Made by a program: the position numbers and the translations under genes. Positions 55,758-56,192 of a stretch of DNA of 64,000 bases are shown here, piece by piece (the stretch's first letter is position 1; the number at the start of each line of letters is the position of its first letter). The stretch lies in assembly GCF_013315695.1 (NCBI RefSeq), contig NZ_CP054353.1, one strand, 5' to 3'. The notes under the pieces are model-generated. The model did not search any database and had not been told where the DNA came from. It saw only the letters and a program-made list of their open reading frames with translations. Source of the DNA: Escherichia coli (GTDB lineage Bacteria > Pseudomonadota > Gammaproteobacteria > Enterobacterales > Enterobacteriaceae).

Positions 55758-55779
55758 TGGTTATGTTATAACATAACAG
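55758..55779 (+). promoter_or_regulatory. Zur box upstream of ykgM
   Basis: Palindrome GTTATGTTATAACATAAC about 10 nt upstream of the ykgM start. Confidence 0.55.
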
Positions 55780-55785
55780 GTAAAA

Positions 55786-56052
55786 ATGATGAAGCCCAAT
55801 ATCCATCCTGAGTATCGTACTGTGGTGTTCCACGACACCAGTGTTGATGAGTACTTTAAAATCGGCTCGACTATCAAAACAGACCGTGAGATTGAGCTGG
55901 ATGGCGTAACGTATCCGTACGTAACAATTGATGTCTCTTCAAAATCGCACCCGTTCTATACAGGGAAGCTGAGAACAGTGGCATCAGAAGGAAATGTTGC
56001 ACGATTCACCCAACGTTTTGGTCGTTTTGTTAGCACGAAAAAGGGGGCATGA
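55786..56052 (+). CDS. ykgM: Ribosomal protein L31 paralog (zinc-independent, type B)
   Basis: 88 aa [19 protein letters not shown]... with no CxxC zinc ribbon. Confidence 0.9.
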
Positions 56053-56192
56053 TGAAAGTCCTTAACTCTCTGCGTACCGCAAAAGAACGCCATCCAGACT
56101 GTCAGATTGTGAAGCGAAAAGGACGGCTGTATGTGATTTGTAAATCTAATCCACGTTTTAAGGTCGTTCAGGGTCGTAAGAAAAAACGTTGA
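56052..56192 (+). CDS. ykgO: Ribosomal protein L36 paralog (zinc-independent)
   Basis: 46 aa [46 protein letters not shown]; ATGA overlap with the ykgM stop. Confidence 0.85.

Follow-up and report, generated by a model that had tools for sequence, protein, structure and literature searches.

An unaltered ykgM-ykgO operon with its Zur operator in an IS1-rearranged neighbourhood of the Escherichia coli chromosome

Background

The locus described in this paper is, with very little doubt, the chromosomal ykgM-ykgO operon of Escherichia coli, itself unaltered and predicted to be Zur-regulated, in a neighbourhood that IS1 has rearranged through an inversion and an adjacent deletion. It lies in a window of 64,000 nucleotides (64 kb), by which we mean the whole stretch of DNA that was analysed. 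The operon with its Zur operator is already known in every respect and is among the best characterised zinc-starvation responses; the sole new information is the strain-specific IS1 scars, namely the inversion, the partial loss of ecp, and the bracketing of the locus by direct repeats. What can be used at the level of the strain is that an IS1 deletion has cost this lineage ecpR, ecpA, ecpB and the beginning of ecpC, and that a 23.4-kb IS1 inversion joins the ykg region to the thrW island.

The ykgMO operon is under Zur repression, and L31p in turn represses the translation of L31 (PMC9825181). Among the four known E. coli Zur operators, the L31p operator has the tightest apparent Kd for Zur and is the most palindromic; the footprint of Zur on the L31p promoter is approximately 30 bp, and repression by Zur at this operator in vivo is 560-fold (PMC4219657). 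In E. coli Nissle, the zinc chelator calprotectin raises ykgM approximately 2,500-fold and ykgO approximately 1,000-fold (PMC10410751).

Results

The features on which the analysis draws are collected in Table 1.

Table 1. Features of the ykgM-ykgO locus and its surroundings, in window coordinates
Feature	Coordinates	Strand	Basis
P22-type injectosome (DNA ejection) gene	52212..53630	+	Pfam Inj_translocase 3.3e-58; annotation
IS1A copy a, 768 bp, left boundary, inversion endpoint	53626..54393	-	Identity to copy b; InsA and IS1 DDE domains
NADH:flavin oxidoreductase pseudogene, 5' fragment	54612..54854	+	Pfam Oxidored_FMN, profile positions 1-64 of 342
ykgR, small membrane protein, 33 aa, native upstream neighbour	55323..55424	+	NF041474, 78.1 bits (cut-off 40); RefSeq
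Candidate sigma-70 promoter: -35 TTGAAA (55727-55732), 17-nt spacer, -10 TATCTT (55750-55755)	55727..55755	+	Consensus scan
Zur operator (Zur box), halves GTTATGTTA and TAACATAAC	55760..55777	.	Uniqueness in window; K-12 identity
ykgM, type B (zinc-free) ribosomal protein bL31B, 87 aa	55789..56052	+	NCBIfam NF002462, Pfam Ribosomal_L31
ykgO, type B ribosomal protein bL36B, 46 aa	56052..56192	+	NCBIfam NF002021, Pfam Ribosomal_L36
Two hairpins 3' of ykgO (56221-56239, 56242-56278), then a short U run	56221..56282	+	RNA fold
ykgL remnant, frameshifted	56227..56401	-	RefSeq annotation of MSB1_4I and AF14 transferred to window coordinates
IS1A copy b, 768 bp, right boundary, deletion endpoint	57129..57896	-	Identity to copy a; no target duplication
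5'-truncated ecpC (fimbrial usher), then intact ecpD and ecpE	57897..60180	+	Pfam TcfC and CooC_C usher-type domains

Identity and zinc ligands of YkgM and YkgO

The initial annotation had described the ykgM-ykgO pair as intact, and both reading frames do score above the curated type B cut-offs. YkgM reaches 122.9 bits against NF002462 (type B L31; curated cut-off 86) and stays below the cut-off of 70 of the type A equivalog models NF000612 and NF001809, while YkgO reaches 87.6 bits against NF002021 (type B L36; curated cut-off 70). The start of ykgO overlaps the stop codon of ykgM by 1 nt (TGATG). The YkgM protein is that of K-12, with no differences, and its residues 1-68 are identical to PDB chain 6i7v_D7, '50S ribosomal protein L31 type B'; on the strength of this identity to a solved chain, YkgM is expected to be incorporated into ribosomes. 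YkgO is identical at 45 of its 46 residues both to K-12 YkgO and to PDB 6i7v_C5 ('L36 2'), the sole difference being A38V; both PDB chains belong to a solved E. coli ribosome, 6I7V. The variant protein (codon 38, 56163-56165) is WP_001329485.1, which is common to E. coli MSB1_4I and AF14, and position 38 aligns with a non-conserved residue of RpmJ.

Both proteins had also been called zinc-independent paralogs, a description that stands for YkgM and that for YkgO follows from family classification. The residues of YkgM show it to be zinc-free: it has no cysteine in 87 residues, and the RpmE cysteines C16/C18 and C37/C40 align with residues other than cysteine. In the alignment with K-12 RpmE, CSKC becomes SSKS in YkgM, and YkgM carries a 12-residue insertion. 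The RpmJ ligands C11/C14/C27/H33 align with YkgO H14/C17/C30/F36, so that one ligand is lost and one cysteine is replaced by histidine. Since three of the four zinc-ligand positions in YkgO are still occupied, by His14, Cys17 and Cys30, the case for its zinc independence is drawn from the family assignment and the literature.

Related genomes and distribution of the arrangement

The window differs from the complete genome of E. coli MSB1_4I (NZ_LR898874.1) at three places in 17.6 kb, namely one base in each IS1 copy and one A in the A-run ahead of the ykgM start codon. The closest relative free of these IS copies is AF14, which is 99.85% identical across the 2,735-bp segment that lies between the two IS1 copies of the window. 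In AF14 the order is fdeC, two aldo/keto reductase genes, a LysR-family gene, the oxidoreductase fragment, ykgR, ykgM, ykgO, the ykgL remnant, ecpR, ecpA-E, ykgJ and yagU, and the ecp operon is complete.

Among 5,426 complete E. coli genomes, the full double-IS1 arrangement occurs in one, MSB1_4I. The ykgM-ykgO pair itself is detectable in 5,044-5,060 of the same genomes, and was not detectable by megablast in approximately 366 of them (about 7%). In UTME-3, the match covers only the last 87 bp of the ykgM-ykgO query, and the feature there is annotated rpmJ.

The IS1 load of MSB1_4I is high, with 26 places in its chromosome matching a 5.1-kb IS1-containing query. A further MSB1_4I locus (L005), which is not part of the window, has one more IS1A at 16586-17353, with a lacA-like acetyltransferase gene that lacks its 3' end on one side and ykgG immediately on the other. 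K-12 has many genes between the two, and the join suggests a further large IS1-associated deletion.

Zur operator and promoter region

Upstream of ykgM, at 55760-55777, is the exact 18-mer GTTATGTTATAACATAAC, which is its own reverse complement and therefore a perfect 18-bp palindrome. This is the Zur palindrome of the initial annotation, whose interval began at 55758, 2 nt upstream of it, and ended at 56192, the stop of ykgO. With three mismatches permitted the 18-mer has a single match in the window, where none is expected (100 shuffles). A gap of 11 nt separates the Zur box from the ykgM start, with a Shine-Dalgarno-like AGGT motif in between. The 55 bp from the candidate -35 element to this motif (55727-55781) are the K-12 sequence, base for base, and are also identical in 3,045 E. 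coli records.

The two halves of the box agree with the E. coli Zur operator motif at all eight specified positions (PMC4219657). The skeleton of that motif was dropped as a statistical test: it matches the window 257 times against 288 expected and is thus uninformative, so that the case for the operator rests on identity to the characterised K-12 operator.

The candidate promoter, found by a pattern-only scan in which the hexamers are consensus matches, agrees with the consensus at 9 of 12 positions and ends 5 nt before the Zur box; its predicted start, likewise at pattern level, is near 55762, within the box. Since the region had fewer such sigma-70 sites than its own shuffles in the consensus scan, the promoter is to be read as a pattern-level assignment. 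The K-12 identity of operator and promoter region points to Zur control of ykgMO in the source strain, since repression in vivo that depends on Zur and zinc is established for the identical K-12 sequence (PMC4219657); it is established for Nissle as well (PMC10410751).

Between AGGT and the ykgM start codon there is a run of A (55782-55786) that has five A in the window, K-12 and AF14 and four in MSB1_4I and 2014C-3338, so the spacing from the Shine-Dalgarno motif to ATG shifts by 1 nt. The Zur box of AF14 is a one-base variant, GCTATGTTATAACATAAC, approximately 29 nt upstream of ykgM (position 9396 of the AF14 locus, L003); the base concerned is one of the 'x' positions that the published motif leaves unspecified, and with this change the box is no longer a perfect palindrome.

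The native segment between the IS1 copies

The locus lies between two IS1 copies, as had been noted, and these are identical 768-bp sequences in direct orientation, 2.7 kb apart. Their ends read GGTAATGACTCCAACTTATTGAT and, on the complementary strand, GGTGATGCTGCCAACTTACTGAT. Pfam identifies the InsA zinc-ribbon and HTH domains and the IS1 DDE domain in them, and RefSeq labels both copies as IS1A transposase with programmed frameshift.

The native segment that they enclose is 2,735 bp long and holds the oxidoreductase fragment, ykgR, ykgM, ykgO and the ykgL remnant. The 5' fragment of the FMN oxidoreductase is found unchanged in genomes that lack the IS1 copies, and is annotated as incomplete in MSB1_4I, 2014C-3338 and AF14. 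The two hairpins 3' of ykgO have a folding energy of -38.5 kcal/mol (z = -7.35 against shuffles), and a consensus terminator scan flagged nothing at these hairpins. From the fold they are probably a terminator, possibly one common to ykgO and the convergent ykgL remnant. An Rfam scan of 54394-57128 gave no family match; one sub-threshold eukaryotic snoRNA (E = 0.91) was read as chance.

The left junction

The IS elements had been called rearranging, and this is literally so, the left junction being an inversion endpoint and the right junction a deletion endpoint. On the phage-island side, copy a is flanked by GGGTGATTA (53617-53625), and on the ykg side by GAATAAACG (54394-54402). In MSB1_4I a third IS1 (copy c), in inverted orientation, adjoins the LysR-family gene 23.4 kb away; its flank towards LysR is GAATAAACG, and its flank towards the island is GGGTGATTA and then ATGGCTAAAG. 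At copy c the arrangement is therefore the swapped one, with GAATAAACG before IS1 and GGGTGATTA after it, and each 9-mer is present once at copy a and once at copy c. In AF14, TTATTAT runs directly into GAATAAACGTATCC, and the junction between the LysR-family gene and the oxidoreductase fragment is uninterrupted.

Each 9-mer is thus a target duplication divided between copies a and c, just as an inversion between two inverted IS1 copies would leave it, and it is copies a and c together that carry the 9-bp target-site duplications of IS1. This shows that the left IS1 junction is the endpoint of an IS1-mediated inversion of approximately 23.4 kb. The inversion could have come about by homologous recombination of two simple insertions or by one intramolecular replicative transposition; the junctions fit both routes equally.

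As a result ykgMO and proBA now share one direction, which in K-12 they do not, and the ykg segment abuts the P22-type injectosome gene of the island at tRNA-Thr (thrW). Copy a is situated inside the last two codons of this gene, whose uninterrupted end, GGGGTGATTAATGGCTAA, can be read from the flank of copy c. The phage-derived island, at approximately 41800-53625 of the window, lies next to tRNA-Thr and downstream of proA, and carries an integrase, an antirepressor, an Ash-family protein, a TOPRIM/DUF927 primase-like protein, a DUF2824 protein and P22-type injectosome genes. It is split by the inversion, and the rest of it is found past yagU, either at the window's end or outside it. Further away, from position 1 to approximately 28000, is a Flag-2 lateral flagellar cluster (lafA, lafU and a second flg and fli set), upstream of dinB-yafNOP; flgI of this cluster is annotated as incomplete in MSB1_4I.

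The right junction

Copy b is flanked by TAAAACTTA and GGATGATGG, which are not a target duplication. The window positions on either side of it, 57128 and 57897, correspond to positions 10735 and 13082 of the AF14 locus, so that copy b replaces 2,346 bp (L003 10736-13081, AF14) comprising ecpR, ecpA, ecpB and the first 242 bp of ecpC. An IS1 without target duplication, in the place of 2,346 bp of native DNA, marks an adjacent deletion, and the right junction bears the signature of an IS1 adjacent deletion endpoint. The E. coli common pilus (ECP/Mat) operon, of which ecpA encodes the major pilin, is inactivated (57129-60180), with ecpD and ecpE intact.

Discussion

The arrangement may be explained by a short series of events around an operon that would work as it does in K-12. 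The 18-bp Zur operator would cover the -10 and start region of the ykgMO promoter. With zinc present, two Zn-Zur dimers would sit on approximately 30 bp centred on the palindrome and RNA polymerase would be blocked; with zinc absent, Zur would leave and ykgMO would be strongly induced. When zinc is scarce, bL31B and bL36B would replace the zinc-binding bL31A and bL36A in ribosomes, and bL31B would also repress rpmE translation. As for the surroundings, one IS1 would have entered the junction of the LysR-family gene with the oxidoreductase fragment, and a second one the end of the phage injectosome gene of the thrW island, after which the two recombined, or a single intramolecular transposition took place, and some 23.4 kb was inverted. 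A further IS1 copy would have removed ecpR, ecpA, ecpB and the 5' part of ecpC in an adjacent deletion, and the outcome would be the 2,735-bp native segment between identical direct IS1 copies.

It is conceivable that the operon is intact and nevertheless functionally altered, through read-through or outward transcription from IS1, the loss of a distal regulatory element, or a changed orientation to replication. The segment is indeed inverted relative to proBA as compared with K-12, which changes its orientation to replication, and in Nissle the full upstream intergenic region reduces background expression (PMC10410751). However, that entire ykgR-ykgM intergenic region is kept here, native, together with a further 930 bp upstream; copy a is 1,366 bp of native DNA from the operator, with ykgR in between, copy b is 936 bp of native DNA downstream of ykgO and past the strong hairpins, and both promoter and operator are identical to those of K-12. 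Nothing in the sequence points to a position effect on expression, and we regard altered function as quite unlikely. An assembly artefact, that is, a repeat-induced mis-join that created the double-IS1 arrangement, would be in keeping with the many chromosomal places at which IS1 is found (the 26 matches above), such repeats being classic sites of mis-assembly. The reciprocal junction 23.4 kb away, with its exactly swapped 9-bp duplications, is not what a random mis-join would yield, and the complete genome of MSB1_4I shows this arrangement too, differing at three places in 17.6 kb, although the window is perhaps of the same lineage or isolate, in which case this support is not fully independent. 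A mis-join can hardly be credited at all.

A Tn9-type composite transposon consists of two direct IS1 copies around a few kilobases of cargo. The unit from IS1 through ykgR, ykgM and ykgO to IS1 (53626-57896, 4,271 bp) has this architecture, with two identical direct copies flanking the segment, and could be seen as a Tn9-like element that moved in or is actively mobile with the Zur-regulated paralogs as cargo. There are, moreover, records of small circular 'plasmids', pLR-24_4 among them, in which a chromosomal ykgM-ecp segment is accompanied by one IS1. The outer 9-mers of the unit differ, though (GGGTGATTA and GGATGATGG), so there is no target duplication of the unit; the right flank is native ecpC-ecpD-ecpE-ykgJ-yagU in native order; an inversion with swapped duplications, together with an adjacent deletion, explains both junctions in full; and the arrangement is known from one locus in 1 of 5,426 genomes. 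The matches to plasmid records are without replicon typing and have other IS1 junctions. With no outer duplication, a native right flank and a single occurrence, we reject the composite transposon, which we consider highly improbable.

Plasmid-borne ykgMO was likewise set aside as evidence of mobility, the records being F-prime plasmids from laboratory strains of K-12, chromosomes mislabelled as plasmids, and small, non-mobilizable, replicon-less chromosomal circles. Of the last kind is pLR-24_4 (NZ_AP027498.1, L009), 10,618 bp long, deposited as a plasmid and without replicon typing, with one IS1A and ykgM-ykgO-ykgL-ecpR-ecpABCDE. Its IS1 junctions differ from those of the window and it is thus an independent event; it looks like an IS1-bounded piece of chromosome closed into a circle, whether by separate excision or amplification or as a by-product of assembly. 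Replicon-less circles with a single IS1, such as this one, hint that circles from this chromosomal region form. That the 4.27-kb IS1-(ykgR-ykgM-ykgO)-IS1 might be a nascent composite transposon or translocatable unit, excising as a circle and spreading Zur-regulated, zinc-sparing ribosomal genes to plasmids and strains, strikes us as a most improbable extension of the same idea.

Under the preferred reading, an unaltered chromosomal operon between two IS1 scars, homologous recombination between the direct IS1 copies could delete the native segment. The initial annotation had considered the locus to be at risk of loss, and with 768-bp identical direct repeats 2.7 kb apart this is a reasonable expectation; no deletion allele was seen, however, and loss by IS1-IS1 recombination is best called plausible. 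Since approximately 7% of complete E. coli genomes are without the operon, the loss of ykgMO, should such a deletion occur, would probably be tolerated.

Compared with K-12 ykgM-ykgO (b0296-b4506), the locus has the same Zur box, the same 55-bp promoter stretch, the same YkgM, the same overlapping pair, and the same neighbours ykgR and ykgL. It differs in the A38V change of YkgO, in the frameshift of ykgL, in the inversion of the segment relative to proBA, and in its flanks, which here are IS1; in K-12 the segment is bordered by ecpR (matA) at one end and by the ykgP/eaeH side at the opposite end. The L31 paralog of Bacillus subtilis, the alternative ribosomal protein operon of mycobacteria and RpmE2 of Neisseria share the logic of Zur-repressed, zinc-free paralogs that are swapped in under zinc limitation, as described in PMC9825181 (see also PMC6094098 and PMC13343924). 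These C- paralogs, which are likened here by description rather than by sequence, belong to other operons with other operators and are more numerous in mycobacteria. With Tn9 the locus has in common two direct IS1 copies around a few kilobases, but here there is no target duplication around the unit, one side is native chromosome, and there is no sign of movement. Adjacent deletions and inversions are classic behaviour of IS1, and the scars described in this paper are alike in kind, with a deletion junction that has no duplication and reciprocal 9-bp duplications on two inverted copies; they differ only in their strain-specific endpoints.
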